Origin: Bacteroidales bacterium
GTDB lineage: Bacteria > Bacteroidota > Bacteroidia > Bacteroidales > UBA1715
DNA length: 64,000 bases
Direction: 5' to 3'
NCBI GenBank assembly: GCA_031286165.1
Contig: JAITUU010000019.1
Coordinates: 6,730-70,729, forward strand
Part shown: positions 35,207 through 50,061 of the stretch, piece by piece
How the letters are laid out: the number at the start of each line of letters is the position of its first letter
Numbering within the stretch: the stretch's first letter is position 1
Program-made: the position numbers and the translations under genes
Notes under the pieces: model-generated
Database searches by the model: none
Seen by the model: only the letters and a program-made list of their open reading frames with translations
Told to the model about the DNA's origin: nothing

Positions 35207-35503
35207 TTATTTGTATTTTATGCGGTGTTCGCAATTCATATTTTTGCAGGCTTTGCCTTTGAAAAATTGCACTTCTTTTTCAATCTCTTCTATGCGTATT
35301 TCCCACTTTTTGTCGCGTGCTATCATTTCGTTGCGCAGGCTTTCGAGGGCGTATTGATAGGTTTCGGCAATGGTTTTGTAGGTTTCGTTTATGGCACGCT
35401 CGGTTTCGGCTTTTTGCTTGCGCATACCAAAAAAGTAACTTACCACTCCGCTCGCCGCTGCCGTTGCGCCCAAAACTCCTATATGTACTTCTTCAAAAGT
35501 CAT
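35207..35503 (-). CDS. Holin-like protein (N-terminal TM + coiled coil)
   Basis: TM IGVLGATAAASGVVSYFF, coiled coil, C-terminal CxxxxC; late-operon position. Confidence 0.45.
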   Translation of the reverse strand: MTFEEVHIGVLGATAAASGVVSYFFGMRKQKAETERAINETYKTIAETYQYALESLRNEMIARDKKWEIRIEEIEKEVQFFKGKACKNMNCEHRIKYK

Positions 35504-35514
35504 AGTTTGATTTT

Positions 35515-36651
35515 TTAGAAAATTCGTATGTACGGCACGTCAAATTGTTGCACAGTGCCGGGAAATGATTGGGCGATATATGATTGTAAGTTCATTGTAC
35601 CGCCGCCGTATGCCGTTGGTGGTGCAATTTCACTACCGGCAATAACGGTTTGCAGTACATTCGTGGAATTGGGAATTTCGCTTTTTATGCGTTTTGCAGC
35701 CAAGTATCGTGCGCTTGTGTGGTCTATAAACAGTACGGCATAGTATTTTTGCTCGGCATACAATAAAACTTCGTCTTCAAAATCGGCAGTAATAGCGCAC
35801 GGTTCGCTACGAGAAAGATAACCAATAAGCGTTTTGCGAACAAAAGTCATGTTCCAATCGTAAATCGCCACACGAAAGTTACCGCCGGTGTGATTTGTTT
35901 GTACGCAAATTTGCGCTTGTTTCACGGTAGTATCTACGGCAGGAATTACCATAACACCCACAAAACCGGGATTAAAATTTTGTGCACCCTCGCACAGTGC
36001 AAAGGGAAAACTTTCGATAGGTGCGGAACTGCCATTGCTTATGCAAGTTTGCTCACCACCAAGCGAAATAGTTTTTATTTTGTTCCATGTACGCACTTTG
36101 ATTTTTGGCGTTTCACCGTCCATAAAGAGCGACATTGTTTCTTCCATGAGATTATCATCGTCCGTTTCTTTCGCACTGTGAATAAAAGATTGCCCGGTAA
36201 GAAAATAATGATTGTCTGCATTAATTCTCAAATTAATAGCATTGGCGGAACCCTGCTCAGAAAATGTTCCGTTGTAATTTTTATACAAACAATTTCGGTC
36301 GGTAAGGCGGAAAAATTGAAAAGGATACCCGTATGTTCTTTGTTCGTGATTATATACAATCAATTCGTTATTTCTCACTTGCAGTATATCAAAACCGTTT
36401 TCCCGCTTCAAATGCAATCCGTTGCGCGAAATAGAAAGCCATTTTTTATACTCATTTCCCCATTCGTTTGCCTCATATTTCGCAAATTCTTCGGGATTTT
36501 CGCGTTTCAATTCCCCCAATTCTACAATCACATGTCCACTGCCTTCTATGGCAAGCGGTGGTGTGCTATTGTTTTGCGCTGCGGTATCGCCGCCAACAAT
36601 ATCAAGCAAACCGGTTTGCGGATTAATCGTTGTTTCGTAATCAAAACTCAT
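35515..36651 (-). CDS. Putative spike/receptor-binding protein
   Basis: N-terminal INPQTGLLDIVG anchor-like motif, beta-rich body, C-terminal sandwich-like domain (NFRVAIYD, QKYYAVLF). Confidence 0.5.
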   Translation of the reverse strand: MSFDYETTINPQTGLLDIVGGDTAAQNNSTPPLAIEGSGHVIVELGELKRENPEEFAKYEANEWGNEYKKWLSISRNGLHLKRENGFDILQVRNNELIVYNHEQRTYGYPFQFFRLTDRNCLYKNYNGTFSEQGSANAINLRINADNHYFLTGQSFIHSAKETDDDNLMEETMSLFMDGETPKIKVRTWNKIKTISLGGEQTCISNGSSAPIESFPFALCEGAQNFNPGFVGVMVIPAVDTTVKQAQICVQTNHTGGNFRVAIYDWNMTFVRKTLIGYLSRSEPCAITADFEDEVLLYAEQKYYAVLFIDHTSARYLAAKRIKSEIPNSTNVLQTVIAGSEIAPPTAYGGGTMNLQSYIAQSFPGTVQQFDVPYIRIF

Positions 36652-36653
36652 GG

Positions 36654-36923
36654 CTATACGGTTTTTAGTGCATATTCATACTGTTCGCGTTGCGCCCAAT
36701 CGAAATCAAACATACCGAAGCCGACCCATTCAGTACGATATGTTACGCTGCGCGTATTGGAAAACACTATTTTTTTTACGCGCTCAATGCGGCACTTCGT
36801 AGCATCGGTATTTTTTGGAAATCCGAAATACCACGTAGTTCCACCTTCATTCACATTCACCACTTCATGTACCAATGGTGCTTTCATGCAATTTGTTATT
36901 AGTTCCGAAGAATATTCATTCAT
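36654..36923 (-). CDS. Small virion protein, putative spike adaptor
   Basis: WYFG...CRIERV...FDFDWAQREQYEY pattern, immediately upstream of the spike gene. Confidence 0.4.
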   Translation of the reverse strand: MNEYSSELITNCMKAPLVHEVVNVNEGGTTWYFGFPKNTDATKCRIERVKKIVFSNTRSVTYRTEWVGFGMFDFDWAQREQYEYALKTV

Positions 36924-36940
36924 AGTATGCAGGCTTTAAA

Positions 36941-37549
36941 TTATGCAAGTGTGTAGCCTTTTTGTGCTACCCATTTGGTAATATAGTTTTTAAAAGAACC
37001 TACGGTAATAGCACCGGTAGCATCTTGGAATATTGCATTTTGCTGTGCTACTTTACTGCCGGGCGCAGCTATTATGTAACTTTCGGCTTTGCCCATTGCT
37101 GCAGGGTAGAATACTGCCAAATACACATCGGTAAAGCAATTCATTTTACCTTTATAGGTATTCAGGTATTTATACACGTAATCCAACTGTTGCACATTGG
37201 TCATGGCGCATAGTGCATCGCAGGTGGTGCCAAGTGCATTTGCTGTTTTGGGCATAAATTGAATCAATCCGGTGGCTCCACCTGTGGGATTCACAGCGCG
37301 GTGGTTCAATCGGCTTTCCATAGCCATTACCGCCATAAGCCAATCACCTTTAATGCCCAAAGAACCACAAATAGAGTGCACTTTTTGCAAAAAAGCCTCT
37401 TTGTTTTCGGTAACGTAGTTTTCAAAAATCATGACTGTATGTTTTATTGTTTTGCGAAATACACACACGAGCAAAACCAATAACGCTGCGCATAGAGCAA
37501 CGGCGGTTATAAGCAGTTTCTTTTCGCCTATCGGTATTTTTAGGTTCAT
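36941..37549 (-). CDS. Lytic transglycosylase (SLT/lysozyme-like) with N-terminal TM
   Basis: WLMAVMAMES (catalytic Glu), GATGLIQFMPKTA, QLDYVYKY, YLAVFYP. Confidence 0.85.
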   Translation of the reverse strand: MNLKIPIGEKKLLITAVALCAALLVLLVCVFRKTIKHTVMIFENYVTENKEAFLQKVHSICGSLGIKGDWLMAVMAMESRLNHRAVNPTGGATGLIQFMPKTANALGTTCDALCAMTNVQQLDYVYKYLNTYKGKMNCFTDVYLAVFYPAAMGKAESYIIAAPGSKVAQQNAIFQDATGAITVGSFKNYITKWVAQKGYTLA

Positions 37550-37707
37550 TACTGTATCATTTTATTGCCCACAATGAGAATAACACCCACCAAAAGCAAG
37601 GCACCGGCAAGCATACAAATACTTGTTGTTTCTATTGCTACCGGTACTTCGGGCAGCCGACCGTCTTTGATGTCGGCTACTAATTTTGAGTTTAAAAGGT
37701 CATTCAT
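37549..37707 (-). CDS. 52-aa membrane protein missed by the ORF track
   Basis: MNDLLNSKLVADIKDGRLPEVPVAIETTSICMLAGALLLVGVILIVGNKMIQ*; fills the gap exactly, with TAATG coupling to the transglycosylase. Confidence 0.7.
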   Translation of the reverse strand: MNDLLNSKLVADIKDGRLPEVPVAIETTSICMLAGALLLVGVILIVGNKMIQ

Positions 37708-37708
37708 G

Positions 37709-38032
37709 TTATTTTACGTATTGGTCAAATTGTGCTTTGGTAAATTCTTTGGTATTGTAATATTTCACAAGTGCCGCTTCGGTAAGTGGTCCAAAATCAC
37801 CATCAACAACCAAACTCGCTCCTTTACTATTCAAGTGCGTTTGCAATTTTGACACGTTGTCGCTATTCATTACTCCGTTTTTAAGCGGAAAATCGTTGGC
37901 GGTGGAAGAAGAAGTTCCTATACCGGGCACTCTGCTTTGCCCTTGTGATTTTTTACCTTGCACTATAATAATTGCCGCTACTATGGCTGCAATTACTACT
38001 GCTATCAAAATATATTTCGTTGTTTTTGTCAT
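37709..38032 (-). CDS. Membrane-anchored peptidoglycan-binding domain protein
   Basis: N-terminal TM; VSKLQTHLN...LVVDGDFGPLTEAAL (PG_binding_1 motif). Confidence 0.8.
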   Translation of the reverse strand: MTKTTKYILIAVVIAAIVAAIIIVQGKKSQGQSRVPGIGTSSSTANDFPLKNGVMNSDNVSKLQTHLNSKGASLVVDGDFGPLTEAALVKYYNTKEFTKAQFDQYVK

Positions 38033-38044
38033 AATTGAAAGTTT

Positions 38045-38494
38045 TTAAAGTGATACGTTTATTGATTTTAAAATAAAATTGAGTTCTTGCATTTCGCCGC
38101 TACTGAGTTCGGTGGGGAGTAGTTCCGGTAGGTTGCCTTTGTAATTACCCACAAAGAATAAACCTGAATTGACTTCTTTAATGCCAAACACATCTACCAA
38201 GCGCAGCCAATCCGATTTTGTTTTCATTTTTCGGGCTACATTGTAAATTGCCTCTACATTAGTACCTATGCCGTCCATAGCGTTAAATATGGTGGCTGCC
38301 ATATCGCGGTATTCAACATCGGAATAACTGAGGTCATTTTTATTAATTTCGCTTTTGCGCTCGCTCTCACGATTTTTTGAGAGAAACCATTCCTGAATTT
38401 TTGGTTTCAGAAACGTATATCCTACGTATGCCACTATTACTACAATAGTTACGAGAATGATTTTTTGCAATCGAGGGTCTAAATTTTTTAACAT
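38045..38494 (-). CDS. Membrane-anchored protein with a single annexin-like repeat
   Basis: N-terminal TM; MAATIFNAMDGIGTNVEAIYNV...LPELLPTELSSGE resembles annexin AxxLxxAMKGxGTDE...LxSELSG. Confidence 0.55.
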   Translation of the reverse strand: MLKNLDPRLQKIILVTIVVIVAYVGYTFLKPKIQEWFLSKNRESERKSEINKNDLSYSDVEYRDMAATIFNAMDGIGTNVEAIYNVARKMKTKSDWLRLVDVFGIKEVNSGLFFVGNYKGNLPELLPTELSSGEMQELNFILKSINVSL

Positions 38495-38500
38495 AGTTTT

Positions 38501-38803
38501 TTATTTTTTCATTTTCATAAACACAACACCTCCGCCGATTGCGAGCACTACCACCGCAATAATTATTACAATCATGATAGAATTACTTCCTTCGCTCTTG
38601 TTGTCATTATTATTTCCTCCGGCTCCGGCTTTTGCAAGTAATGCCATTTGCTGTATTTGCATTTCGGCTATTCTTTCATTTGACGCTGCTACCGCTGCAT
38701 TTCCAGCTGCGGTTGTTTTTGCAGCCTTATTATTTGCTATGCCAGCCACTACTGTACTTCCTAAGTCGCCTACACATGATATTATTGGTCCTAAATCAAA
38801 CAT
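38501..38803 (-). CDS. Tail-anchored membrane protein, putative virion protein
   Basis: Amphipathic N-terminus, Ala-rich helix, C-terminal TM VVVLAIGGGVVF + MKMKK. Confidence 0.65.
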   Translation of the reverse strand: MFDLGPIISCVGDLGSTVVAGIANNKAAKTTAAGNAAVAASNERIAEMQIQQMALLAKAGAGGNNNDNKSEGSNSIMIVIIIAVVVLAIGGGVVFMKMKK

Positions 38804-38808
38804 AATTC

Positions 38809-39540
38809 TTAATTTTTAAATTTGTTGTACATATACACTCCTCCAATTCCTATTGCAATAACCGCAACTACTATCACTATCGGCAGCATACTGCTTTGTT
38901 GTTGCGTTTTGCTATTGGCTGCAGCATCTCTTAGTGCTGCTTCCTCTTCCAATTTTTTGATATATTGTAGTTCGGCTTTGGTTTGAAGCACACTACTTTC
39001 TACCTCACGTTCGCTTTGTTTCGCCGCTTCTTTTTCTGCGGAGGCAAGTGCTTTGGCTGTTTTGTTTTGCTTTATGCCTTTTACAAGACTGCCGGTAATA
39101 GAAACCGCCGCAGAAACGCCTGCTGTTATCAGTCCTATAAATTCGTGAATATTCGCATTATTCGGAATTTTCGTATCAAACACCTGACGCAGCACCGATG
39201 TATTATCGTTATCGGTAGAAAGTGCCGTTTGTAGCAATTCTTCGCCGCGTGCTATTTGTTGTTTGGTAGTAAATGGCAGACTTTTATAATATGCTTTCAA
39301 AATATCTACCGTATCATCGCCAAGTTCTAAACATCGCCAAAACGCCCATCTATCCGCAAGCATTTCGTTATCTTCGGCAGCGTTCAAATGTCCCAATTCA
39401 TGAGCAATAACAAATTTTTTGCCCATTTCACTGAGTTTATTCCACGCCGCCGGATTTATGTACAGTACGGCAGTATTCAAATCAACCGCTGCCGGTCCGT
39501 TAATCCACGAAACTTCTTGTGTGGAAGAAAATAATTTCAT
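38809..39540 (-). CDS. Zincin-like (HEXXH) metallopeptidase fused to coiled coil and C-terminal TM; start re-called at MKLFSS
   Basis: LYIN...FVIAHELGH...EMLADRWA; C-terminal TM IAIGIGGVYMY + NKFKN. Confidence 0.7.
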   Translation of the reverse strand: MKLFSSTQEVSWINGPAAVDLNTAVLYINPAAWNKLSEMGKKFVIAHELGHLNAAEDNEMLADRWAFWRCLELGDDTVDILKAYYKSLPFTTKQQIARGEELLQTALSTDNDNTSVLRQVFDTKIPNNANIHEFIGLITAGVSAAVSITGSLVKGIKQNKTAKALASAEKEAAKQSEREVESSVLQTKAELQYIKKLEEEAALRDAAANSKTQQQSSMLPIVIVVAVIAIGIGGVYMYNKFKN

Positions 39541-39545
39541 AGTGG

Positions 39546-39716
39546 TTATGATTGTTTCATTACTTGTGATGCTTTTTTCAAGCATATACTCATCTGCACT
39601 TTATGTACTTTTTTTGCCGGAATGGTTTTGTAACCAGCTTTGTTTTGAATGTCCTGAGCAAGTTTCATGAGGCGTTTTGCTCTATTTTGCGCCGCTTTTT
39701 GTTTTAAAGATGCCAT
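39546..39716 (-). CDS. 56-aa basic protein missed by the ORF track, putative DNA-binding core protein
   Basis: MASLKQKAAQNRAKRLMKLAQDIQNKAGYKTIPAKKVHKVQMSICLKKASQVMKQS*; fits the operon spacing. Confidence 0.65.
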   Translation of the reverse strand: MASLKQKAAQNRAKRLMKLAQDIQNKAGYKTIPAKKVHKVQMSICLKKASQVMKQS

Positions 39717-39739
39717 AGTTATACCTTTTTATATTTCAG

Positions 39740-39952
39740 TTAAAACGTTTCGGAAACCCACCAATCGGCACAAACTTGTGTGAGCCATGTGAATTTTCTA
39801 ACTTTTTTGAGTGTTTTTTTCGATTGCAATGCTGCTAATTTTGCAAACAGTTGTTTTTCAGAGTAAGGACCAAATTTGAGATTATTTGCCTCCCCTATTT
39901 CTTTGAGTACAGCCAAAAACTCTTTTTTTCTAATTGATTTCGTTGTTGCCAT
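39740..39952 (-). CDS. 70-aa Lys-rich hypothetical protein
   Basis: ORF in operon orientation; strongly basic. Confidence 0.55.
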   Translation of the reverse strand: MATTKSIRKKEFLAVLKEIGEANNLKFGPYSEKQLFAKLAALQSKKTLKKVRKFTWLTQVCADWWVSETF

Positions 39953-39965
39953 AATTCATGTTATA

Positions 39966-40430
39966 TTATTTTCTCTTTACCGAAGAACTTTTCAGTATCG
40001 TTGGTGCTGCGGTTAGGGCAGCATGATACACACCGTTTTCTTTATTATCCCATAGAAAGTTAGAGTAATTTTTATCTACTGTGAAGGCATATACCGAAGA
40101 ACCGTTTATATAAGAAAGGTGTGTTTGATATATCGCAGTTAATACAGCATCTTCATAACTTGTGTAGCCCCAATTATACCACGGACCGTCCGGATTGAGA
40201 TAGGATATTCGTTTCTTTACTTCTCTCAAACACGATTCGCGCTGTGCCAGCGTCCACAAGCCGTTTGTTAAATCCCACTTACTTGCTACCGAAGCGGTTG
40301 CGGAATTAGAACCCGTACCTGTGGAGTCTTTATTTTCACTTGTTTCGGCAGCATTGCTTTTACCGGCAAATACAAACACCAGCACTATTACCAGCACTAC
40401 TGCAATTCCTATTATTATTTTTTTACTCAT
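39966..40430 (-). CDS. Signal-anchored membrane protein, putative virion protein; start re-called at MSKKIII
   Basis: N-terminal TM IIIGIAVVLVIVLVFVF, Ser/Thr linker, aromatic domain. Confidence 0.65.
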   Translation of the reverse strand: MSKKIIIGIAVVLVIVLVFVFAGKSNAAETSENKDSTGTGSNSATASVASKWDLTNGLWTLAQRESCLREVKKRISYLNPDGPWYNWGYTSYEDAVLTAIYQTHLSYINGSSVYAFTVDKNYSNFLWDNKENGVYHAALTAAPTILKSSSVKRK

Positions 40431-40434
40431 AATT

Positions 40435-40875
40435 TTACTTTTTACAAATTCGTATAATAGCAAACGTTGTGATAGAAACTATGACAATGGCTACAAAACC
40501 CAAAATGATAGTTTTCTTCTGTTTTGCCTCTTTTTCATCAGCCTCGGCGGCTGCTTGGCGTGCTTTTTCCTCCACTTCTTTTTTTGCTTCGGGAGTTATG
40601 CCGTTTTCTATGCCAAACAAATCGAAGGCAGTATCTACGATTGAACGCAAATCTTCTCCACTAAACGCAGCAATCTTTGGTGCCGACTGTATCAACATTC
40701 TGTTCAATTCGTTGCTGAACTGTTTGCCGTGTTTCACGTATGCGCGGCGCAATTCGTTTTCAAGGTTCACATCATTGGGGCGCAACCCATAGCGATTGAA
40801 AAAGAAAAGCCAACTCTTCGGGTCGGCTTTTCTCATTTCGTCAATCAACACATCTATTGATGCCGTTTTTTTCAT
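40435..40875 (-). CDS. Tail-anchored membrane protein, putative virion protein
   Basis: Helical N-domain, AAFSG, C-terminal TM IILGFVAIVIVSITTFAII + RICKK. Confidence 0.65.
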   Translation of the reverse strand: MKKTASIDVLIDEMRKADPKSWLFFFNRYGLRPNDVNLENELRRAYVKHGKQFSNELNRMLIQSAPKIAAFSGEDLRSIVDTAFDLFGIENGITPEAKKEVEEKARQAAAEADEKEAKQKKTIILGFVAIVIVSITTFAIIRICKK

Positions 40876-40881
40876 AGTTAC

Positions 40882-41550
40882 TTAAATTAAGCCGGTTGCT
40901 ATTGCATTTTCCAACTGTGTTACTTGGCTCATGCGGTCATCGAAGTAAAATACCAAACTCACTTTTGCGCCCGCTTGCACTTTGTACAAAAACACACGGT
41001 CTTTGCCCAATACAAGGGTATCGTTTGAAAAATCTACCGATACACGAGTTTGATCGTTTTCCGTTTCCGATTTTGATGCGCTTGGTGTGCGTGTAATAAT
41101 TTGTTTTGGGCGGTGTGGACCAAGTTCGTACACTTGAAGAGCCTCATCGAGTTGGTCGGTTTTTTTACACATCACTCGCACACCTTTAATACGGCATGGA
41201 GTTTCGATAAAGGTTTTGCGAATATCAATCACATTGGCACCTTGTCCGCTTGCTGTTACGGCAGTAGAAGTAGAGGTTGCTGAAATAAATATACCATCGT
41301 CCACAATGCCGGTAACTTTTTCGGAAAAGTCCTTCATTTGCGATGCTTTTTCGTAGTATCCTTCACTGATTGCCACGAATTGGTCCACCGGTGCTTTTCC
41401 ATCGGATGCCGGAGCGGCATTATCTATTACTAAGGTTACGCTTTCTCCCGAAAAAGGATTTACATAACCATTTTGATTGCCGGCATAACCCTTAATTCCA
41501 AGTTGTCGGCGTGCTCGTTGTTGCGGAGTTTCATTTTCTAAAAATTCCAT
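40882..41550 (-). CDS. Candidate major capsid protein (beta-sandwich/jelly-roll type)
   Basis: Only sizeable soluble all-beta-looking protein at the head of the structural operon (SVTLVIDN, RIKGVRV, LQVYEL, VSVDF, VFLYKV, VSLVFYF); no HK97 motifs. Confidence 0.55.
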   Translation of the reverse strand: MEFLENETPQQRARRQLGIKGYAGNQNGYVNPFSGESVTLVIDNAAPASDGKAPVDQFVAISEGYYEKASQMKDFSEKVTGIVDDGIFISATSTSTAVTASGQGANVIDIRKTFIETPCRIKGVRVMCKKTDQLDEALQVYELGPHRPKQIITRTPSASKSETENDQTRVSVDFSNDTLVLGKDRVFLYKVQAGAKVSLVFYFDDRMSQVTQLENAIATGLI

Positions 41551-41582
41551 TACTATATATTTTTTTTTAAGTTATTACTTGA

Positions 41583-41765
41583 TTATTTTCCGGATAGTTT
41601 GTTGGCAAGCGTAAAAGGATTACCGGTAAAATTCGCTACGGTGCCGTTATTTTCGGCTGTTTTTTTCGCTACGGCATTCACCAATGCCATATTCCACACT
41701 GCGGAACCTACAATAAATACCACTAAAATAATAAGTAGTATGTTTGCTGTTTTGATAGAATTCAT
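41583..41765 (-). CDS. 60-aa signal-anchored membrane protein, first gene of the structural operon
   Basis: TM ILLIILVVFIVGSAVW; contains ANFTG. Confidence 0.65.
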   Translation of the reverse strand: MNSIKTANILLIILVVFIVGSAVWNMALVNAVAKKTAENNGTVANFTGNPFTLANKLSGK

Positions 41766-41827
41766 GTTTATTTGTTTTAACTGTTTACATTATTGAGTGC
41801 AAATATTATAACAAGTGATTGTGCCGA

Positions 41828-41888
41828 TACGGACTTTATCGGACTTTATCGGACTTTCAAGCACTTTATCGTGCTTTATCGGACTTTT
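41828..41888. repeat. 10-bp-period direct repeats (GGACTTTATC) upstream of the structural operon
   Basis: ggactttatc ggactttatc ggactttcaa gcactttatc gtgctttatc ggacttttt. Confidence 0.8.
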
Positions 41889-41951
41889 TGTGCATAAAAA
41901 AAGCCACCGTATGGGTGGCTCTTACTGCAAACTAAAAAACGGAACAAAGAT

Positions 41952-42233
41952 TTATTTTTTGAATAAGTCGGAATGAGTTCCGGTATGTGTAAGAACAATG
42001 TTTATTCGATTTTTTCCTGCGTTCCACACAAGCAACCAATCGGGTTGTAAATGTGCTTCCCACAAACCATTGTATTTTCCTTTCAATACGTGTGTTTTAT
42101 ATCTATCTACCGGCAGCGTGCCTGTGGCTTCCAATATTTTAACAGCAACATTTAACAATTCCATATTAAGACCTCGTTTTTGGGCTAATTTGGCTTGTTT
42201 TTTAAATTCGTGGGTGTAAGATATTGTGTACAT
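41952..42233 (-). CDS. yafQ: YafQ-family (RelE fold) mRNA interferase toxin
   Basis: FKKQAKL...HVLKGKYNGLWEAHLQPDWLLVW...TGTHSDLF. Confidence 0.9.
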   Translation of the reverse strand: MYTISYTHEFKKQAKLAQKRGLNMELLNVAVKILEATGTLPVDRYKTHVLKGKYNGLWEAHLQPDWLLVWNAGKNRINIVLTHTGTHSDLFKK

Positions 42234-42237
42234 ATAA

Positions 42238-42453
42238 CTAACTTAAAATTTCCTCTATCGGATTCTTTGTGTTTTTGAGAATATGTATTTTCCCTTCTCG
42301 TAAATCCTGCATTGATTTTTCAAAAGTAGCAGTTGTTTTCGCCGTTCTTTTGGGTAATGTTACACTCCATTTGAATTTTTTTGCCAATTCCGTAAGCAAA
42401 TCAAATTCATTCATGGGAATAGTAATAGTTACTTGTTGTACTGTTGTTGCCAT
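42238..42453 (-). CDS. Cognate antitoxin 1 (71 aa; start MATTVQQ)
   Basis: Directly upstream of the toxin; own TATATTTG -7 box; C-terminal FEKSMQDLREGKI. Confidence 0.8.
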   Translation of the reverse strand: MATTVQQVTITIPMNEFDLLTELAKKFKWSVTLPKRTAKTTATFEKSMQDLREGKIHILKNTKNPIEEILS

Positions 42454-42593
42454 AGCCGTAATAATTAGTTTCTTGTGCAAATATAGAAAATTATTTTTCA
42501 AAATCATTCTCTGTAATGCCATTCGGACTTTTTGTGCATAAAAAAAGCCACCGTATGGGTGGCTCTTACTGCAAACTAAAAAACGGAACACAG

Positions 42594-42872
42594 TTATTTA
42601 TCTAAATAATGTCCTTTCACGCTCAGAATATCAACTGTAATAGCATTATTGTTGATTGAATATACCATACGATTTTTACTATCTATTCTGCGCGACCAAT
42701 ATCCGGAAAGTTCGTGTTTTAATCTTTCCGGGTTCCCCGAACCTGTTTCGGGGTGTTCTTCGAGTTCATCAAGCAATTTTTTGATTTTTTTCAATCGTGG
42801 TTTATCTCCACTTTTCACAAGAAAATCTAATTGTTCTTCAGCCTTTTCCGATAAAAATATGGTGTATTTCAT
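42594..42872 (-). CDS. yoeB: Txe/YoeB-family toxin
   Basis: KIKKLLDELEEHPETGSGNPERLKHELSGYWSRRIDSKNRMVY...VKGHY. Confidence 0.92.
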   Translation of the reverse strand: MKYTIFLSEKAEEQLDFLVKSGDKPRLKKIKKLLDELEEHPETGSGNPERLKHELSGYWSRRIDSKNRMVYSINNNAITVDILSVKGHYLDK

Positions 42873-43093
42873 AATTCTCCGAAGTATTTATTTTTTACAG
42901 ACGAAGTTAATTGACGTTTGGGAGATTTTTCGGCATCTTGAATCATTTTCACAAATGACGCACTGTATTTTGTCGTTTGCGTTGTGCTTTTGGGTAATGT
43001 TACACTCCATTTGAATTTTTTTGCCAATTCCGTAAGCAAATCAAATTCATTCATGGGAATAGTAAGGGTTACTTGTTGTACTGTTGTTGCCAT
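42869..43093 (-). CDS. Cognate antitoxin 2 (74 aa; start MATTVQQ)
   Basis: First 35 aa match antitoxin 1 at 34 positions; different C-terminus (YSASFVKMIQDAEK); overlaps toxin start by 4 nt. Confidence 0.8.
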   Translation of the reverse strand: MATTVQQVTLTIPMNEFDLLTELAKKFKWSVTLPKSTTQTTKYSASFVKMIQDAEKSPKRQLTSSVKNKYFGEL

Positions 43094-43130
43094 AGCCGTA
43101 ATAATTAGTTTCTTGTGCAAATATAGAAAA

Positions 43131-43331
43131 TTATTTTTCAAAATCAGCCTCTGTAATGCCATAATGTGCGCACACGTGTTCGAGTGCTGCACCGTATAAG
43201 CGTTTGTGTGTCATACGATAGCCAAATTCCTGCACGCGGGTAAAGAGCGGCGGCGTGTGCAGTTCCTTTGTAAATACTTCGGTGCTTATGCCTATGGCGT
43301 AGGCAATTTCGTTTTTGTAGCGTGTTTTCAT
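43131..43331 (-). CDS. Small HTH-like protein (DUF4248-like), candidate regulator
   Basis: KNEIAYAIGISTEVF...GYRMTHKRL...VCAHYG pattern. Confidence 0.5.
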   Translation of the reverse strand: MKTRYKNEIAYAIGISTEVFTKELHTPPLFTRVQEFGYRMTHKRLYGAALEHVCAHYGITEADFEK

Positions 43332-43332
43332 G

Positions 43333-43890
43333 TTATTCTGTTGTAATGTGGATTTTTGCGTAGGGATTTTTGAGTGCTTGTGTGCGCACTGTATTCACTG
43401 CGGTTTCTAATTTTTGAAGTATGTGTGGCGGTATCCATGCTTTGCGCAGGCGCGGTTCGTCCATAGTATTGAACAATACATAATCGGTAATGTAAGTAAA
43501 TAATGCCGGTGGAATATCGCGGAAGCCATGAGCAACAAACACAATATCGAGCATCATCTTTCGGCTCACTATAATAATTTTTTTCAATGCCGAATGGTCG
43601 AAATTGCTACCAATGTAAGCGCGTGGGTCGTCGAGAACCAACACGGCATCGTGCAGGTGTTTATAAATTGCCACAAAATCGGTTTCATTTTCATATACCC
43701 GGCAGCGCACGCCGGTATAATCAAAATCTTTTCGCGCCCGGCACTTACATTCGGGAAGTTTATCCGCCCAATCGTCCCACGTGGGCACAACAAAAAGTGC
43801 ACGTTTGCCTATACAAGCAACTGCTTCGGCAAAGGTAGATTTTCCGCAACCACGCACGCCCAGCAATAGCATAATTTTAGTTTTTCGCAT
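43333..43890 (-). CDS. FtsK/HerA-superfamily (A32/P9-like) ATPase, putative genome packaging motor; start re-called at MRKTKI
   Basis: Walker A GVRGCGKST, Walker B VLVLDD, Arg-finger region SRKMMLDIVFVAH; 185 aa with no nuclease domain. Confidence 0.75.
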   Translation of the reverse strand: MRKTKIMLLLGVRGCGKSTFAEAVACIGKRALFVVPTWDDWADKLPECKCRARKDFDYTGVRCRVYENETDFVAIYKHLHDAVLVLDDPRAYIGSNFDHSALKKIIIVSRKMMLDIVFVAHGFRDIPPALFTYITDYVLFNTMDEPRLRKAWIPPHILQKLETAVNTVRTQALKNPYAKIHITTE

Positions 43891-44440
43891 TGGTTTCTTT
43901 CTCTTGTAATTGTTTTCGCAACGCATCTATTTCCATATCTTTTTGCATACCGCGCATTTGTTCTTCTTCCAATTTTCGTTGTGTTGCGCGGTATTTCACG
44001 GCAGTACTGATTTTTAAACCATAAATAAACACCGTAGAAATAGTGGCATTGACCCACGGCGGTACCGGTTTGTTTTCGGGCAACACTTGCGCCCATGCGT
44101 TGGTAAGTTCTTCGAGTTCTTCGGCATCGGCAGCCTCGTAGCCTTCGCGTATAATCATACCCATAATAAAGGTCATGAGCCGGTCGCCGTTTTTTACGAG
44201 TATTTGCGCGGTGGTTTTGTTTACCGCCGCATTAATTTTTTGGCGCACGGCAGTAGGCACATCGCTCAGTTCCTCGCCGCTGTCTTCGGGTTGGTTATAC
44301 ACTTGCTTTTCCTCTTGCAGGTCTTGCAGCAAAGTATCGGCTTCGGTGTAGTCGCTCACTGTGCCGGTTTCAAATGTGTATTCGGATTCCGCCGCCGGTG
44401 TATCTAATACTTCGGCTGGTACAAATTCTTCAAAATTCAT
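43877..44440 (-). CDS. Hypothetical protein with acidic N-terminus, hydrophobic segment and coiled coil (possible packaging accessory)
   Basis: PVPPWVNATISTVFIYGL hydrophobic helix; overlaps the ATPase start. Confidence 0.6.
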   Translation of the reverse strand: MNFEEFVPAEVLDTPAAESEYTFETGTVSDYTEADTLLQDLQEEKQVYNQPEDSGEELSDVPTAVRQKINAAVNKTTAQILVKNGDRLMTFIMGMIIREGYEAADAEELEELTNAWAQVLPENKPVPPWVNATISTVFIYGLKISTAVKYRATQRKLEEEQMRGMQKDMEIDALRKQLQEKETNAKN

Positions 44441-44442
44441 GA

Positions 44443-44736
44443 TTACAAAATAGATAGTAAGAATTGTTTAACAATATCGGCTGCTGGTTGCACATTTTCC
44501 ATGCGCAATATGGTTTTGTTTTCATCTAAAAACACCGTGCCTACATACATGGTATCTTTTACCGGAAACGCCATAAACGATACTGTATTTTTGCTTTCGG
44601 CTTGCATGGTTTTTATGCGTTCCAGCGCAAATGCTTCGAGAGAAGGTAGAAATTGCGGAAGAATTTCGCTTTCCAATAATTTTTTAATTTGCTTTTTTCC
44701 TGCACTTGATTTCAGGAGTGTTTCTAATCCAAACAT
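44443..44736 (-). CDS. Hypothetical protein
   Basis: Tightly spaced ORF in operon orientation. Confidence 0.65.
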   Translation of the reverse strand: MFGLETLLKSSAGKKQIKKLLESEILPQFLPSLEAFALERIKTMQAESKNTVSFMAFPVKDTMYVGTVFLDENKTILRMENVQPAADIVKQFLLSIL

Positions 44737-44737
44737 A

Positions 44738-45433
44738 TTACTCGTATTTTTTCATGATTATTTTGATTTCTTCATTTGTTACCATAGTAGGAAAACTACC
44801 GAAATGGTTACGTGTTTTGGTGTATTTTACAAACAAATCGGTAAGAAGCACGCTTGCGCTAAGGTCGGGTTTATTCAATTTTTCGCGCAGTCGAGCAATG
44901 GTTAAATCCATAATTTCGCGAGCCACATCGCCAAATTCCACCAAATATTTACCGCGTTCGGGCTGTGCACAGGCGAGTGTCATTTTGGTAAGTTTCTGCG
45001 CATTGGCATTTGCCATTTCCTGCACTTTTGCATTTTCTTCCATAAGTGCTGCTATTCGCACTATATCGGCACCGGCTTTTGCTTCGAGTTCTGACACCTG
45101 TGCACGCAAACTTTGTATTTCGGCATCGGCATTGTCGGCACCGCTTGCCGCTGCATCGACAAGGTTGGCATTTTCTACTTGCAGTTCTTGTACTTGATTT
45201 TCAAGCGATTGCAGTTTTTCGCACAATTCGCTCTCGGTACGCTGCGCTTGTTGCAATTCAAAATTCAAATTTATGTTTTCTTTGGCATTGCGCTGGTAGA
45301 AATCGCACAACAGTTCCACAATTTCTTTGGTGGTAAAGTCCGGATTGTCTTCGGCAATTTCATTGAAAGTTGTTTTTATTTCGGGAGTGAATCTACCGGA
45401 GTATTGGGTTTTGTCTTTAAATTTTTCGTCCAT
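44738..45433 (-). CDS. Coiled-coil hypothetical protein (possible RHH-like ends)
   Basis: Central heptad-rich segment; operon head. Confidence 0.65.
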   Translation of the reverse strand: MDEKFKDKTQYSGRFTPEIKTTFNEIAEDNPDFTTKEIVELLCDFYQRNAKENINLNFELQQAQRTESELCEKLQSLENQVQELQVENANLVDAAASGADNADAEIQSLRAQVSELEAKAGADIVRIAALMEENAKVQEMANANAQKLTKMTLACAQPERGKYLVEFGDVAREIMDLTIARLREKLNKPDLSASVLLTDLFVKYTKTRNHFGSFPTMVTNEEIKIIMKKYE

Positions 45434-45455
45434 AGTATTATTTTTTGAGTATTAT

Positions 45456-45486
45456 TTTGATTTACATACGTTTTGATATATATTTG
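45456..45486 (+). promoter_or_regulatory. Consensus Bacteroidota sigma-A promoter facing the 3' end of the BECR-like gene
   Basis: TTTG (45456-59), 19-nt spacer, TATATTTG (45479-86). Confidence 0.55.
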
Positions 45487-45576
45487 CCGTTATAAAATTG
45501 TTGGTCATACGCGCTCTCTTACAAAAGCCTTTTCAATATTATGTAAGCAGGTTAATTGAGGTTAGGGAAAAGGATA

Positions 45577-46020
45577 CTAACTGCCAACCTTGCACAAGTT
45601 GGACGATAACAATTTCTTTCTATACAGTCGCTTCGTTTCTATTGGAGTGGCTGTTTTTATTTGATATTTGTTCTTCTTGTCAAATGCAGTCAGTTGTATA
45701 GCGGCTTGTTTCGATTTTTTATCTTCCATAACAACCAATAAATATGAATTATCGGAACCTTGATATATCGCATTAAAATTATCAACAATGAATTTCACAA
45801 AATCAAAAGCACTTAACCCAAGTTGCGTAAGTTCCGTAGTGTGGTCATTATATATATGCACCAATTCGCGTTCTGAAACTACAATATCGCAGGCTTTGAG
45901 CACAGGTGTTGCCCACGAATTGTATTGTATGCGCCCAACTTTTAAAAATTTGTTATCGTTGTGAGCCTTTGCGCCGGAACCGGCATTGCTCTTTTGTGAT
46001 TGTTTGGTTTGTTGCAGCAT
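45577..46020 (-). CDS. Stand-alone BECR-fold (phage Barnase-EndoU-ColicinE5/D-RelE-like) nuclease candidate
   Basis: IVVSERELVHIYNDH (HIxxxH), IYQG, LLVV, YQIKTA pattern; own TATATTTG box at 46058-46065. Confidence 0.5.
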   Translation of the reverse strand: MLQQTKQSQKSNAGSGAKAHNDNKFLKVGRIQYNSWATPVLKACDIVVSERELVHIYNDHTTELTQLGLSAFDFVKFIVDNFNAIYQGSDNSYLLVVMEDKKSKQAAIQLTAFDKKNKYQIKTATPIETKRLYRKKLLSSNLCKVGS

Positions 46021-46140
46021 GACTAAAAACTATAGTGTATATATTTTTAGCCGTTCACAAATATAGAAATTTTTATTGAAAAACAAACGCTTGTTATAAA
46101 AAATATGCGTTTACAATGCTAACAACTGTAAATCAAATTG

Positions 46141-46518
46141 TTTACAACTTTGAAACCACTTGAAACCACTTTGTATTCAACCGATTTCACTTTGTATTCG
46201 CTTGAAACCGTTTTGTAAGCAGTTGTTTTTACACTGAAATCGGCGTGAAAACAGAAATAGTTTGACGGAATGTACGGACTTCTGTAATATGGTATTATTC
46301 AATATATTACATAAATTCTCGTTTTGACGGAGCAATATGATAATACCACATTCAATACACTGATTATAAAGAAATTACATTCCGTCAAAACAATTTTTTT
46401 GAGTTTTGACGGAAAAACCGTGTCCGTCAAAAACCGTCAAATAAAACTCAAAATTTTGACGGCTTGCAAATGATTGAAAATCATTGTTTTATATACTTAT
46501 TTTTTTCTCTCCGTCAAA
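46141..46518. repeat. Putative replication origin: eight TTTGACGG/CCGTCAAA octamers plus TGAAACC/TTGTATTC repeats
   Basis: Forward copies at 46261, 46323, 46405, 46455; reverse copies at 46382, 46424, 46434, 46511; AT-rich, gene-free. Confidence 0.7.
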
Positions 46519-46590
46519 ACCGTACAAAAGAATATATTATTTAAGAGTATATCATTTGAATTAAGCTGCGCGAGTGGTACAAAAAAGGTA

Positions 46591-46648
46591 AAAAAAAGCC
46601 CCCCGAAGGCAGTGTTTTGTGCAACTGTTTCGGAGGGCTTTTTTTTGA
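46591..46648. terminator. Bidirectional terminator-like hairpin 3' of the replication operon
   Basis: AAAAAAAGCCCCCCGAAGGCAG...CTGTTTCGGAGGGCTTTTTTT. Confidence 0.65.
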
Positions 46649-46664
46649 GTATTATAACAGACCG

Positions 46665-46916
46665 TTAGAGATTATTACAATGCTGCCGATACGTTTTGTA
46701 TTGGGCAAGGTAATCGTTCCACGAAAGCGTGGTGATGCGGCGCAAATTACCATGATGTATTTCAAATTGCCAGCCAAATTCCGCATGATTTTCGCGCAGA
46801 ATTGCAATAACAGTAGATTCAAATTGCACACTATCTTTTGCAATGCTGCCGATGCCGACACTCTGCCCGCTACTCATGTTACGCAAATATGCTTCAACTT
46901 TTCTTTTATACTCCAT
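46665..46916 (-). CDS. Small hypothetical protein coupled to the primase gene
   Basis: TAATG overlap with the primase stop. Confidence 0.6.
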   Translation of the reverse strand: MEYKRKVEAYLRNMSSGQSVGIGSIAKDSVQFESTVIAILRENHAEFGWQFEIHHGNLRRITTLSWNDYLAQYKTYRQHCNNL

Positions 46917-49699
46917 TAAAACGGTTTTTCTTCGATTGCTTCTATGTGAAAATAATAAACATCGCGCCCATTCTCATAGCCGCGAATCACATTGCGTGAT
47001 TTTTCGGTTTCGGTAAGGAGCAAGTGCGGAGGATTGAAAAGCCATCTTTTGAAACGGCAGAATGTAATGAGTTTTTCTTTCATTTTGCTCATTTTGGCGT
47101 GTTTTGCATATTGTTCCGGCATGGAGTTTTTATATGCGTTGAATATTTCAGCACTATCAATATTACAATTAAGTTTATCGGGCTGAAAAAAATCCTCAGC
47201 CCAGAATATAAATTCTTCGGTGAGTTCCCTGCGTAGTATTCGTTGTTCTATCATATCCATTGGTGGATTTACTTTTTCGCGGAATTTCAAATAAGTATGC
47301 AGGCATTGAGCCATGAAATTATAAAACTCATTCATTTCATTTTCGGTGTAATCGATTGGAATATTTTTACCAAATTCGGTGTATGGCGAAAATTCTTTTA
47401 TTCCTTGTACCGGGTCGTCTCCATGATAATAATCGCAAAAGCCGGTAAACCAAAAACGGCGTTTGAGCGGTCCATCAAAATTTTTCGGTGCATGGTTACT
47501 CGACGCACAGAGTTTTGGTGATTGAGAAAACAGCAATGTAACTTCGTTTTTGTAGAGTGCTCGCACGTCCATACTCTGAGTAATGGGGGGCAGCAGAGCG
47601 TGCAAATCAACCACACTATCAAGGTCATCAAAGTAAAATACTTTGGTTTTGTTTAATTCTACTTTCGACCACAATTTTTCGTCTTTCAAATCAATGCCTT
47701 GCCCACCTTTTCGCTCAAAGGGGCGCACATAACTAAGACTTTCAAAAAATATTGATTTACCGGTACCGCCTTTTTTATCGCCTTTGCTGTCAAGTTCAGT
47801 TTCTATGGCATATACAAGCCACGCCTTTGCCATTTCTTTGTACCGAAACATCATGTAGCCAAGCGCAAGAACTTTACTGATAAAAAACAAGTCCTCCTCG
47901 CGTTTTTCATCAATCGTAAGCGTTTTGCCTTCCTTTTCTTTGCGCCAATAGAACTTTCCTGTATTATACAAAAACTTCAAAAATGAAAAATCTTTGTTGT
48001 TAATCGTTAGGTCAAATCGCTCACTATTAGGCATCGTATTGAGTTGCTGTGCCTTTTCCTTATATTCGTAACTCGTAGGGTTGAGTTCCGAGAGTTCCTT
48101 TCGTAAGCGCACATACGCTTTGCTATAATCTACCCGAAAGGGTTCTTGTTCTTTACGAAAAGTATGGTCTATGATTTCGTATTCGTGTATGAATTTATTT
48201 TTTTCGTTGAATTGCTTTACTTCTAAGCCTTCGGCAGTGATTCGCACGGCTGTATTTTTGAAAAAAAGATAATCGTGCTCTTTGCTCCATGTTTGAAAAT
48301 CAAGGTGTATGCGCGGTATTTTCTTTAAACTCGAAAATTTTACTTGATTACTGCGGTGTATAGTGTTAATAAGTGATTTATTGTAGTATTCCAAGTTTGT
48401 TTTCACAAAATTGATTAATTGTGTGTTTGCGTGGCTATCTACATTGTCTTCGGTAATTTCGTAAGTTATATTATTGTCTATTTGTATGAAATCAAATTTT
48501 GATTTGTTTTGCGGATTGTCAAAAGTCCACAAGCCCAATGCAGAAAGAAAACGATATAAATTATCGTTATCCAAATCGTATTTTATATTTACAATCGTTC
48601 CATCTTTATCTTTTTGCTCTACTTCACTCCAAAATTGCAGGGTATTTGCACTACGCACCAACTGTTTGAATAAGTATTCGTTTCTGGGATATTTTTTATT
48701 TCTGTAATGTACAAAAAAATCTTTTACGTCTTTACAAGGATTGCCTTTGCGGTCGCGAAAATTTTTTAAATCTTCGGGAAGATTGATAATGTGAAAATCC
48801 AAAAATTCCAAAGCGTATTTTTGCGCTTGGCGAATACCGGTAGTGTCGGTATCGTAGCACAAATAGAGTGTTTTAGCAATTCTGCGCAGTGTTTTGTGTG
48901 TGAAATTTGAAATTTCGGCACTTTCGGAATTGAAAAACAGTACATTAAATGATGTATTTGCAAAAATATTGAGCGCATCGCTGCCTCCGGAACAAAGTAT
49001 TACCTCTTCCAATGTATTGTCTTCATCGGGAGCCTTTCCCTCTATAGCTTGATTATATAGCCGCATAGTTTTTGCATTGCCCGAAATGCTGTTTTGTGGT
49101 TTTTCGCCGTAATACGAAAAACGATTGTCTTTCGAGTGGGGCTGATACAAACGACCGTAGATACCATAATCGTACAAAAAAATAGGAAATTCGGTCGTGC
49201 TGCTTATTTCCCAACATTCGGCACCGGTCTTTCCGGGTCGTATAAAACTTTCAACAGAATAGAGGTTAAATTCTCGCTCGCATATTTCGGCTGTTATGTT
49301 TTTGCCAAGTAATGAGAGTTCCGCTTCCGTAAATTGTTTGCGTTTATACGAAAACGTATCTTGATACGCAACCTTTTTGAAACCGGGTTTTGCTTCCGGA
49401 GCCGCTTTGCCATCAATTGGTATATGATAGCGTTCCGCAAGGCGGCGAATAGCATCGCCTTTACTCATGTTTTCTATTTTTGCCACAAAATCTATCACGT
49501 CCATTGTGGAATCCATACACGAAAAACACTTACAGTATTGCTTTGCCGGATTCACACTAAATGCCGGTGTTTTTGTATTGTCGTGGAATGGGCAAAATCC
49601 TGACCAACTACCCCCATTGCGTGTTAAATTTACATAGTCGCCTACCACATCTACTATGTCGGTGGCGTTTTTAATGCGGTTTATTATTGAATTATCCAC
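46916..49699 (-). CDS. Primase-helicase: CHC2 zinc finger + Toprim-like + C-terminal P-loop NTPase
   Basis: CPFHDNTKTPAFSV...CKCFSC; ILCSGGSDAL and CYDTDTTG; GGTGKS, FYFDDL, CASSN. Confidence 0.85.
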   Translation of the reverse strand: MDNSIINRIKNATDIVDVVGDYVNLTRNGGSWSGFCPFHDNTKTPAFSVNPAKQYCKCFSCMDSTMDVIDFVAKIENMSKGDAIRRLAERYHIPIDGKAAPEAKPGFKKVAYQDTFSYKRKQFTEAELSLLGKNITAEICEREFNLYSVESFIRPGKTGAECWEISSTTEFPIFLYDYGIYGRLYQPHSKDNRFSYYGEKPQNSISGNAKTMRLYNQAIEGKAPDEDNTLEEVILCSGGSDALNIFANTSFNVLFFNSESAEISNFTHKTLRRIAKTLYLCYDTDTTGIRQAQKYALEFLDFHIINLPEDLKNFRDRKGNPCKDVKDFFVHYRNKKYPRNEYLFKQLVRSANTLQFWSEVEQKDKDGTIVNIKYDLDNDNLYRFLSALGLWTFDNPQNKSKFDFIQIDNNITYEITEDNVDSHANTQLINFVKTNLEYYNKSLINTIHRSNQVKFSSLKKIPRIHLDFQTWSKEHDYLFFKNTAVRITAEGLEVKQFNEKNKFIHEYEIIDHTFRKEQEPFRVDYSKAYVRLRKELSELNPTSYEYKEKAQQLNTMPNSERFDLTINNKDFSFLKFLYNTGKFYWRKEKEGKTLTIDEKREEDLFFISKVLALGYMMFRYKEMAKAWLVYAIETELDSKGDKKGGTGKSIFFESLSYVRPFERKGGQGIDLKDEKLWSKVELNKTKVFYFDDLDSVVDLHALLPPITQSMDVRALYKNEVTLLFSQSPKLCASSNHAPKNFDGPLKRRFWFTGFCDYYHGDDPVQGIKEFSPYTEFGKNIPIDYTENEMNEFYNFMAQCLHTYLKFREKVNPPMDMIEQRILRRELTEEFIFWAEDFFQPDKLNCNIDSAEIFNAYKNSMPEQYAKHAKMSKMKEKLITFCRFKRWLFNPPHLLLTETEKSRNVIRGYENGRDVYYFHIEAIEEKPF

Positions 49700-49701
49700 A
49701 C

Positions 49702-50061
49702 CTATAAACCTTTAAAAAATTTATTTTTCATAGCCGCGCATAGTTCTTCGTAGGTAGCCATGTAGTTTAAGCCTACGGCATCGCAAATTGCCTCGTAACC
49801 CTTTGGAGTATGTTGTTCCACAAGTCCTTCAATAAAGGATTGTGAAAAACCAATTTCATAGAATAAATCGCTTTCGTCAATATTTAGATGGTAGCGCAAG
49901 TGGTACACTATATCTTCCCTATCGAAGTCGAAAAGTGTTTTTTGTTGAAAGTATTCATCTGCATACGCATTAATTATATCCTGCGGAATTTGTCGAATAA
50001 AATCGTATATTTCAAAGGATGAAATACACGTTACTGTGTTGTCGTTTATTGTTAGTTTCAT
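49702..50061 (-). CDS. Acidic hypothetical protein
   Basis: Tightly coupled upstream of the primase. Confidence 0.65.
   Translation of the reverse strand: MKLTINDNTVTCISSFEIYDFIRQIPQDIINAYADEYFQQKTLFDFDREDIVYHLRYHLNIDESDLFYEIGFSQSFIEGLVEQHTPKGYEAICDAVGLNYMATYEELCAAMKNKFFKGL

Follow-up and report, generated by a model that had tools for sequence, protein, structure and literature searches.

Tandem toxin-antitoxin cassettes with one antitoxin head and two different tail-toxin segments in the cargo slot of an integrated Bacteroidales element

The tandem array and its repeats

The subject of this analysis is a pair of neighbouring toxin-antitoxin (TA) cassettes on contig JAITUU010000019.1 of a Bacteroidales bacterium (assembly GCA_031286165.1), studied within a stretch of 64,000 nucleotides (nt) of that contig, the whole of which is called the window here. 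The cassettes belong to an element of about 21 kb integrated at a transfer-messenger RNA (tmRNA) gene, and the region has all of its genes on the minus strand. In order of transcription, the array runs from a gene of 66 amino acids (aa), which we call gene66, through repeat block B, antitoxin 2, toxin 2, block A, block B', antitoxin 1, toxin 1 and block A' to an array of 10-bp repeats and the next operon; along the plus strand it thus reads A, YafQ, antitoxin 1, B', A, YoeB, antitoxin 2, B (Table 1). What lies between the two copies of B and the two copies of A differs, namely unrelated antitoxin tails and two different toxins of the RelE superfamily, YafQ and YoeB/Txe.

Toxin 1 matches PF15738 at 92 bits (3e-26; cut-off 30) and the TIGR02385 RelE_StbE model at 54.8 bits (cut-off 27.9) and is a member of the YafQ/RelE group, while toxin 2 matches PF06769 at 69.2 bits (3e-19; cut-off 27) and the equivalog model TIGR02116 at 69.4 bits (cut-off 51.8) and is a member of Txe/YoeB. 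A third cassette lies further along the element, and its toxin, with 87.9 bits to PF15738 and 60 bits to TIGR02385, falls into YafQ/RelE as toxin 1 does; the narrower TIGR00053 model stayed below its cut-off in the YafQ/RelE test (62 < 87). Head and tail of antitoxin 3 are both homologous to antitoxin 1 (45% identity), and toxins 3 and 1 are 42% identical. These toxin families are ribosome-dependent mRNA interferases, and the tails of their antitoxins are intrinsically disordered and fold on the cognate toxin. The gene arrangement is that of type II systems, with a small antitoxin gene directly upstream of the toxin, a predicted promoter 5' and a terminator 3'; the antitoxin 2 stop and toxin 2 start codons overlap as ATGA, as do those of cassette 3, and a spacer of 4 nt separates antitoxin 1 from toxin 1. 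Every open reading frame (ORF) is intact, which rules out a pseudogenised array.

The antitoxins themselves are less easily named. None of the three matched Pfam or NCBIfam, and they belong neither to the ribbon-helix-helix (RHH) antitoxins (RelB/DinJ) nor to Phd/YefM. A relation to Panacea was ruled out, as there was no Pfam match to DUF4065 in these proteins, which at 64–74 aa are also below Panacea size. A word-indexed protein search with antitoxin 2 returned the window's own proteins as the sole matches, an exact 50-mer of block B was absent from the genome contig collection, and a scan of viral contigs with all three antitoxins gave two spurious matches only, to an unrelated 142-aa protein.

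The repeats define the boundaries of what is shared. The two copies of block B (191 nt) are 95% identical, and in a column-by-column alignment their core (42347-42522 against 42987-43162) agrees at 172 of 176 positions; beyond the core, about 50% of the positions agree up to the two toxin stop codons, right after which identity is again 100% and the copies of block A agree at 70 of 71 positions. The repeats start 640 and 644 bp apart. Identity of B ends just past codon 35 (..WSVTLPK) in both antitoxins, whose shared heads, MATTVQQVT(I/L)TIPMNEFDLLTELAKKFKWSVTLPK, differ by one residue, and the promoters of the two units are identical over 60 nt. The four mismatches of B are clustered, two of the four falling in a remnant of gene66. 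Within the window the block A and B motifs are confined to these sites, and none occurred in shuffled sequence.

Block A contains an intrinsic terminator, AAGAGCCACC-CAUAC-GGUGGCUU followed by U7, with a 10-bp stem, a 5-nt loop and a folding z-score of about -3; this hairpin was overlooked by a consensus terminator scan and was revealed by folding. The ATGCACAAAAAGTCCGA that follows it opens the array of 10-bp repeats as its first unit, and block A ends within that unit. At the junction of A and B' (..AAAGTCCGA/ATGGCATTACAGAGAAT.., also written ..AAAGTCCGA/ATGGCATTACAGAG..), this first repeat is fused, without any microhomology, to gene66 sequence that begins 32 nt ahead of the stop codon, and because B' carries this remnant of gene66, it is a copy of the left edge of the slot that holds the cassettes. 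The remnant reads GITENDFEK*, and the intact gene ends in GITEADFEK*.

A reading of this DNA made earlier from the sequence only had described this layout with its coordinates and a period of about 640 bp, and it was correct in these respects, since the repeats align at the places it gave and found no match in shuffled sequence. The alignment break just after ..WSVTLPK likewise bears out its statement that identity stops inside the antitoxin genes near codon 35, the last 32 nt of gene66 are indeed repeated in B' as it had said of the upstream gene, and the third TA pair that it counted is present at 50177-50733. Its label for the 66-aa gene, 'DUF4248-like', did not hold up: gene66 has no Pfam match even at E<=10.

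Table 1. Features of the integrated element and of the tandem array (window coordinates)
Feature	Coordinates	Strand	Evidence
Integrated element, ~21 kb, carrying the cassettes	31552..52675	.	29-nt direct repeat of tmRNA 3' end
Tyrosine integrase, next to tmRNA gene	31688-32878		
10-bp repeat array, CGGACTTTAT x5.8, between slot and next operon	41830..41887	.	repeat scan
Block A', distal copy: same terminator as block A, running on into 10-bp repeat array	41879..41949	-	repeat alignment, folding
Toxin 1, 93 aa, YafQ family, RelE superfamily	41952..42233	-	PF15738, TIGR02385
Antitoxin 1, 71 aa: same N-domain as antitoxin 2 (I10 for L10) + tail RTAKTTATFEKSMQDLREGKIHILKNTKNPIEEILS	42238..42453	-	sequence comparison
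Block B', duplicate: 32-nt gene66 remnant, same promoter/leader as block B (42447-42485), antitoxin codons 1-35	42332..42522	-	repeat alignment
Block A, internal copy: intrinsic terminator + ATGCACAAAAAGTCCGA; ends at B' junction 42522/42523	42523..42593	-	repeat alignment, folding
Toxin 2, 92 aa, Txe/YoeB family, RelE superfamily	42594..42872	-	PF06769, TIGR02116
Antitoxin 2, 74 aa, chimera: N-domain MATTVQQVTLTIPMNEFDLLTELAKKFKWSVTLPK + YoeB-type tail ..YSASFVKMIQDAEKSPKRQLTSSVKNKYFGEL	42869..43093	-	sequence comparison
Block B, native copy: gene66 3' end, -7 box, leader ..TACGGCT, antitoxin codons 1-35	42972..43162	-	repeat alignment
gene66 (66 aa), upstream of array; last 32 nt open block B	43131..43331	-	ORF, homologues
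ATPase	43333-43926		weak Pox_A32 match only (Pfam)
Primase	46916-49699		
Third cassette: antitoxin 3 (50539-50733, 64 aa) + YafQ-like toxin 3 (50177-50542)	50177..50733	-	homology
Promoter/leader sites	33944-33985, 42447-42485, 43087-43125, 50727-50768		variable-gap pattern
Post-terminator motif TTTTTTATGYACWAAAA	33477-33493, 41885-41901, 42529-42545, 50099-50115		

A chimeric antitoxin and the family of its head

The two halves of antitoxin 2 have different relatives. Its promoter and first 35 codons share about 98% DNA identity with antitoxin 1, and when it is set against the YoeB loci its head aligns with antitoxin 1 only. Toxin 2 has homologues of 79–86% identity in other metagenomic Bacteroidota, and at four of four such loci (L003, L005, L131 and L133) the antitoxin upstream carries the tail seen in antitoxin 2, Y(S/N)xxF(V/I)xMIx(D/E)AxKAPKRxLTxxLKxKYFGxL, on a different N-terminus, MATI(T/A/S)F(E/Q)YDA..AGAKI. 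The tail DNA of antitoxin 2 aligns well with these loci (about 75–80% identity to L005, judged by eye), and a profile-profile comparison (hhalign) found the two types of N-terminus unrelated. The tail of antitoxin 1, ..TTATFEKSMQDLREGKIHILKNTKNPIEEILS, recurs as ..TTATFNKSLQELKSKQFIQLKNIQNPIAEILQ in P0046 (locus L007), a protein with a diverged head of the same family that is encoded upstream of a YafQ toxin. Because the closest YoeB modules share its tail but not its N-terminus, the comparison supports the view that antitoxin 2 is a chimera, its head apparently derived from the lineage of antitoxin 1 and its tail, together with the toxin, from that of the YoeB modules.

The closest of these modules, L133, lies on a termite-gut metagenome contig of only 825 bp that has a 127-nt terminal direct repeat (1-127 and 699-825). 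As the length of this repeat equals the assembler's k, the contig stands for a 698-bp TA unit that is either a circular path or tandemly repeated; the promoter/leader on this contig, TGTATATTTGCG..ATTACGGTTATGGCAACAA, is similar to block B.

The head has a much wider distribution than this locus. An exhaustive HMMER search with the three window antitoxins yielded 33 representative clusters, nearly all of 60–95 aa. We also took a census of species-representative genomes with a hand-made degenerate DNA pattern for P-x2-[DE]-h-x-h-h-x2-h-A-K-K-h-x-W, by whose design the census is skewed to the LAKKxxW subset of the family; of 114 loci, two chance matches were removed, and each of the remaining 112 has a short ORF with this head, nearly all of them in Bacteroidales (Prevotella/Segatella, Bacteroides, Parabacteroides, Paludibacter). 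Among loci in which the downstream gene is present, the partners, in approximate counts, are YafQ-like (~60 loci), PIN_3 (~9), PIN/VapC (~2–4), YoeB (~2), PemK/MazF (~2) and ParE (~1). The type of tail tracks the type of toxin across these loci: ..YIxSRPxxVxLSxEEI..VRYxK pairs with PIN_3, WVDxFAGKW.. with VapC, and SGIExALxDVKxGRV.. and RLYDPETG..LNDxTMKxIED with two clades of YafQ. This supports the head as a promiscuous antitoxin domain whose tail follows the toxin, and such co-variation is the pattern that would be expected of a constant head with exchangeable linear neutralising elements, which is an established model for type II antitoxins (PMC10440598; PMC8832971).

One member of the family, at locus L115, has an antitoxin ORF of 106 aa in which the usual YafQ-type tail, SGIDKALEDVKEGRVYKAKDADDLINQI, is followed by a second C-terminal extension and then by a YoeB toxin; it looks like two tails in series. 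Another, in Parabacteroides distasonis (L135, 1501-1974 of NZ_OY725768.1), is called 'hypothetical protein' in RefSeq although it lies directly upstream of a RefSeq 'type II toxin-antitoxin system YafQ family toxin'. In two AlphaFold2 (AF2) monomer models, the predicted local distance difference test (pLDDT) was about 69 overall, with one confident helix (residues 14-26), extended segments on either side of it and a low-confidence tail.

The idea that promoter and N-terminal domain are constant while C-terminal tail and toxin are exchanged had been put forward in the sequence-only reading, which also proposed a search for homologues of the head and a listing of their downstream toxins. The sharp breakpoints and the YoeB relatives with the same tail on another head agree with that idea, and the listing came to 112 loci with six toxin families. 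Its interpretation thus stands in part, as regards the chimerism and the promiscuity of the head; the cross-regulation of promoters that it proposed is a possibility, and the label of the 66-aa gene is the point that fell.

The integrated element and its cargo slot

Two copies of a 29-nt direct repeat from the tmRNA 3' end (31552-31580 and 52647-52675, with one mismatch) mark the ends of the element, which is integrated in the 3' end of the tmRNA gene (31186-31582). Homologues of the ATPase encoded next to gene66, at 58–100% identity, led to related elements, and homologues of gene66 directly follow the ATPase gene in four of these, L125, L129, L130 and L128. What comes after gene66 differs among them. 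In L125, from a termite-gut metagenome-assembled genome (ATPase 80%), gene66 is followed by a terminator (CCACTGTAACAGGTGG + T7), AAAGNCCGA repeats and the same 60-aa gene, and the slot is empty; in L129 (ATPase 78%) it is followed by an unrelated 74-aa ORF with terminators of its own, and in L130 (ATPase 83%) by another TA-like cassette with the same -7 box, a ATGGCAACA start and a different 96-aa antitoxin. The contig of L128, an identical element from another run (ATPase 100%), ends at the first bases of block B. Because the contents of the slot vary between related elements, the position behind gene66 is a hot spot of promoter-gene-terminator units. The context thus obtained goes beyond the earlier reading, in that the array occupies a cargo hot spot within an integrated element and the slot is empty in a relative.

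Morons are independent transcription units in prophages (PMC3594210), and the cassettes of the window likewise are predicted promoter-ORF-terminator units between genes that are adjacent in L125. An integron-like cassette array was ruled out: neither an attC-like site nor an integron integrase is present, the element's only integrase being the tyrosine integrase at the tmRNA att site, and every cassette comes with a -7 box of its own.

The flanks of the cargo are near-standard. The Bacteroidetes-type -7 box TATATTTG with the leader ..ACGGCTATGGCAA occurs at exactly four cargo units of the element, and as a promoter/leader pattern (TATATTTGCA-N-ACGRCTATGGCAA) it occurs exactly four times in the 64-kb window and never in shuffles, in front of the three TA cassettes and of a DUF5618 gene; a version of the pattern with fixed spacing had no sites, and the variable-gap version gave these four. 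The post-terminator motif TTTTTTATGYACWAAAA similarly occurs exactly four times in 64 kb, once per cargo unit, and never in shuffles. Since the DUF5618 gene shares this architecture, the promoter looks less like an operator specific to TA genes than like a generic promoter for cargo.

Several further observations concern these flanks and the neighbouring genes. The third TA cassette and the DUF5618 cassette are each preceded by TATTGAATTGTACCG (50802-50816 and 34018-34032), a sequence complementary to the terminator of the same cassette, CGGTACAATTCAATA (~50120-50150 and ~33500-33530), over its 5' arm and loop; the tandem cassettes have no such complementarity to their own terminators. Repeat arrays (AAAGTCCGAT and variants) stand at the same place in the window (41830-41887), in L125 (5625-5700) and in L129 (7010-7049), and could be iteron-like or regulator-binding sites. 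A 147-aa gene at an equivalent place in L125 (1841-2332) and L129 (3650-4114) matches PBECR3 and PBECR1 in Pfam, which are barnase/EndoU/colicin-like ribonuclease families; the window's own copy (45577-46020) has no Pfam match.

Origin of the array and its relation to known systems

We consider it likely that the array consists of two autonomous type II TA units ('morons') in tandem in the cargo slot of a tmRNA element, in which one head, promoter and terminator are used with two tail-toxin payloads. The slot lies between the conserved gene66 on one side and that gene's ancestral terminator and repeat array on the other. One could envision that an illegitimate event, suggested by the lack of microhomology at the join, formed the A/B' junction, either within one element or between two sister elements. 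It would have given a tandem copy of a slot unit whose ends lie in gene66, 32 nt short of the stop codon, and in the first 10-bp repeat. Recombination would then have swapped just the antitoxin tail and the toxin, either by replacement of the payload of one unit or in a chimera that had formed earlier. The outcome would be a YafQ-specific tail with YafQ in one unit and a YoeB-specific tail with YoeB in the other, each unit presumably transcribed from its own predicted -7 box and ending at its own terminator. If modular type II antitoxins are taken as a guide, each disordered C-terminal tail would wrap and neutralise only its own RelE-superfamily mRNA interferase; neutralisation would on this account be specific to the tail.

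The same pair of repeats could have come about in another way, by concerted evolution, if two independently gained cassettes with diverged homologous heads had been homogenised by gene conversion, in which case the boundary of identity would be the end of a conversion tract. Tandem repeats of such length are generally known to convert, the few mismatches of B are clustered, and the head family does occur with YoeB elsewhere (L073, L115); however, the YoeB partners with this head use other tails, the four closest YoeB modules bear a different N-terminus with no detectable relation to it, and a truncated copy of gene66 in B' would not be produced by conversion alone. Because the nearest YoeB modules have an unrelated head and B' holds the gene66 remnant, we regard conversion as an improbable origin. 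More improbable by far is a false tandem, stitched by the assembler from two strain variants with YafQ or YoeB in the same slot. The contig does look metagenome-derived, and the independent contig L128 ends exactly at the start of block B, as it would at a repeat or a branch of the assembly graph, but a strain bubble of the form B, then either payload, then A cannot yield the A/B' junction, the copies of B have four mismatches, of which two fall in the gene66 remnant, and block A, at 71 nt, is shorter than ordinary reads. The lack of an A/B' junction in a strain bubble and the differences between the copies of B make such an artefact very unlikely.

On the same comparison with modular type II antitoxins, the shared head, which is predicted to have a strand-helix-strand pattern, would dimerise and probably bind the shared promoter. 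Such a pattern, together with a conserved basic patch (AKKxxW), would suit a dimeric DNA-binding head. Should the head indeed dimerise and bind DNA, the single-residue difference between the heads and the 60 nt of identical promoter sequence would lead one to expect heterodimers of the two antitoxins and shared regulation. One cassette would be deleted by recombination between the 176-nt or the 71-nt repeats, and because this loss would remove one antitoxin and free its toxin, the array should be self-stabilising through addiction. Protection against deletions by TA systems has been reported for plasmids (PMC6354349).

Several results weigh against parts of this account. A phage nature of the element found no support in the phage collections, which gave no match: none was found by a distant blastn search of 41800-43400 or a tblastn search of a 222-aa structural candidate (40882-41550) against the phage collection, nor by an ATPase scan of a viral contig collection, so that structural candidate and ATPase are both without a match in the phage or IMG/VR collections searched. 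The window antitoxins and typical members of their family have no match in Pfam or NCBIfam even at E<=1 and fall into no known DNA-binding family, a sequence search of the PDB with head-family antitoxins and a Foldseek search of the AF2 models against the PDB were both without a match, and AF2, run on an alignment of 46 sequences, reached a moderate pLDDT of 76–87 for residues 1-30. The promoter/leader also precedes a cargo gene that is not a TA gene, DUF5618 (33552-33950), and the sole palindrome near the -7 box of block B is a 7-nt inverted repeat of A and T only.

Some of these points would fit a head that is neither DNA-binding nor autoregulatory and serves as a handle for stability, degradation or sensing, as has reportedly been proposed for Panacea, with the shared promoter constitutive and free of cross-regulation. 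Consistent with this, the head has no similarity to RHH, AbrB, Phd, helix-turn-helix (HTH) or any other family, and the same promoter/leader stands before the DUF5618 gene; the authors of NetFlax have moreover argued that a promiscuous antitoxin domain need not be a regulator (PMC10440598). The N-terminal position of the head, its size, and its predicted strand-helix-strand with basic AKKxxW nevertheless would resemble the dimeric DNA-binding heads of classical antitoxins, and we hold a non-regulatory head to be possible, if somewhat doubtful. A bolder extension, which we offer only tentatively, would make of the ~30-residue head (..VTxTIPxxDFxLLxxLAKKF/MxW..) an undescribed promiscuous module found throughout Bacteroidales, with a fold outside RHH, AbrB, Phd and HTH, and of the standardised promoter/leader and terminator a 'socket' in which tail-toxin payloads and other cargo may be swapped by recombination. 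If this were true, the regulation of two different toxins would be coupled through heterodimers of the antitoxins of the tandem pair.

The toxin families at this locus are unremarkable, and modular partner swapping is a well-known principle. What is new is an unusually recent example within one locus, in which the variable segment is bounded by a domain boundary and a toxin stop codon; an antitoxin head that is widespread in Bacteroidales and missing from family libraries; and, in a family of tmRNA-integrated elements about which little is known, a cargo slot of variable content between quasi-standard flanks. To our knowledge, deep phylogenies have so far been the main basis for inferring the swapping of heads and tails among antitoxins. 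Here both products of the swap stand side by side, with heads, promoters and terminators at about 98% DNA identity, and the swap model thereby becomes directly testable. A common Bacteroidales head is now labelled 'hypothetical protein' by annotation pipelines, and a hidden Markov model of it would name many orphan partners of YafQ, PIN, YoeB and MazF in gut and termite-gut genomes.

Like DinJ-YafQ and RelBE, the first cassette has a YafQ/RelE mRNA interferase (PF15738, TIGR02385), a small upstream antitoxin gene and tight coupling of the two, but its antitoxin has a strand-helix-strand head and lacks the RHH signature of DinJ/RelB or of any library family. The second cassette resembles YefM-YoeB and Axe-Txe in its toxin, which matches the Txe/YoeB equivalog model, and in the ATGA overlap, which is the usual coupling; antitoxin 2, however, is not of the Phd/YefM type, its head is apparently borrowed from a YafQ-type antitoxin, and its tail is common only to a small clade of Bacteroidota YoeB partners. 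Chromosomal superintegrons also hold arrays of small TA cassettes, which are thought to stabilise the array against deletion, whereas here there is no attC-like site or integron integrase and each cassette has its own promoter. With the morons of prophages (PMC3594210) the cassettes share their nature as independent units between conserved genes, which are absent in the close relative L125 and replaced by other cargo in others; they differ in that four cargo units have a near-standard promoter/leader and post-terminator sequence, and in that the element is at most a putative phage. The closest parallel in principle lies in Panacea/PanA, NetFlax and the linear neutralisation model (PMC8832971, PMC10440598), in which one domain carries exchangeable neutralising elements and is paired with several unrelated toxin families. 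Unlike Panacea, the domain described here is about 30 aa long, N-terminal, without a DUF4065 match and confined to Bacteroidales in this survey, and in contrast to both Panacea and NetFlax, the swap is visible here at about 98% DNA identity within one locus.

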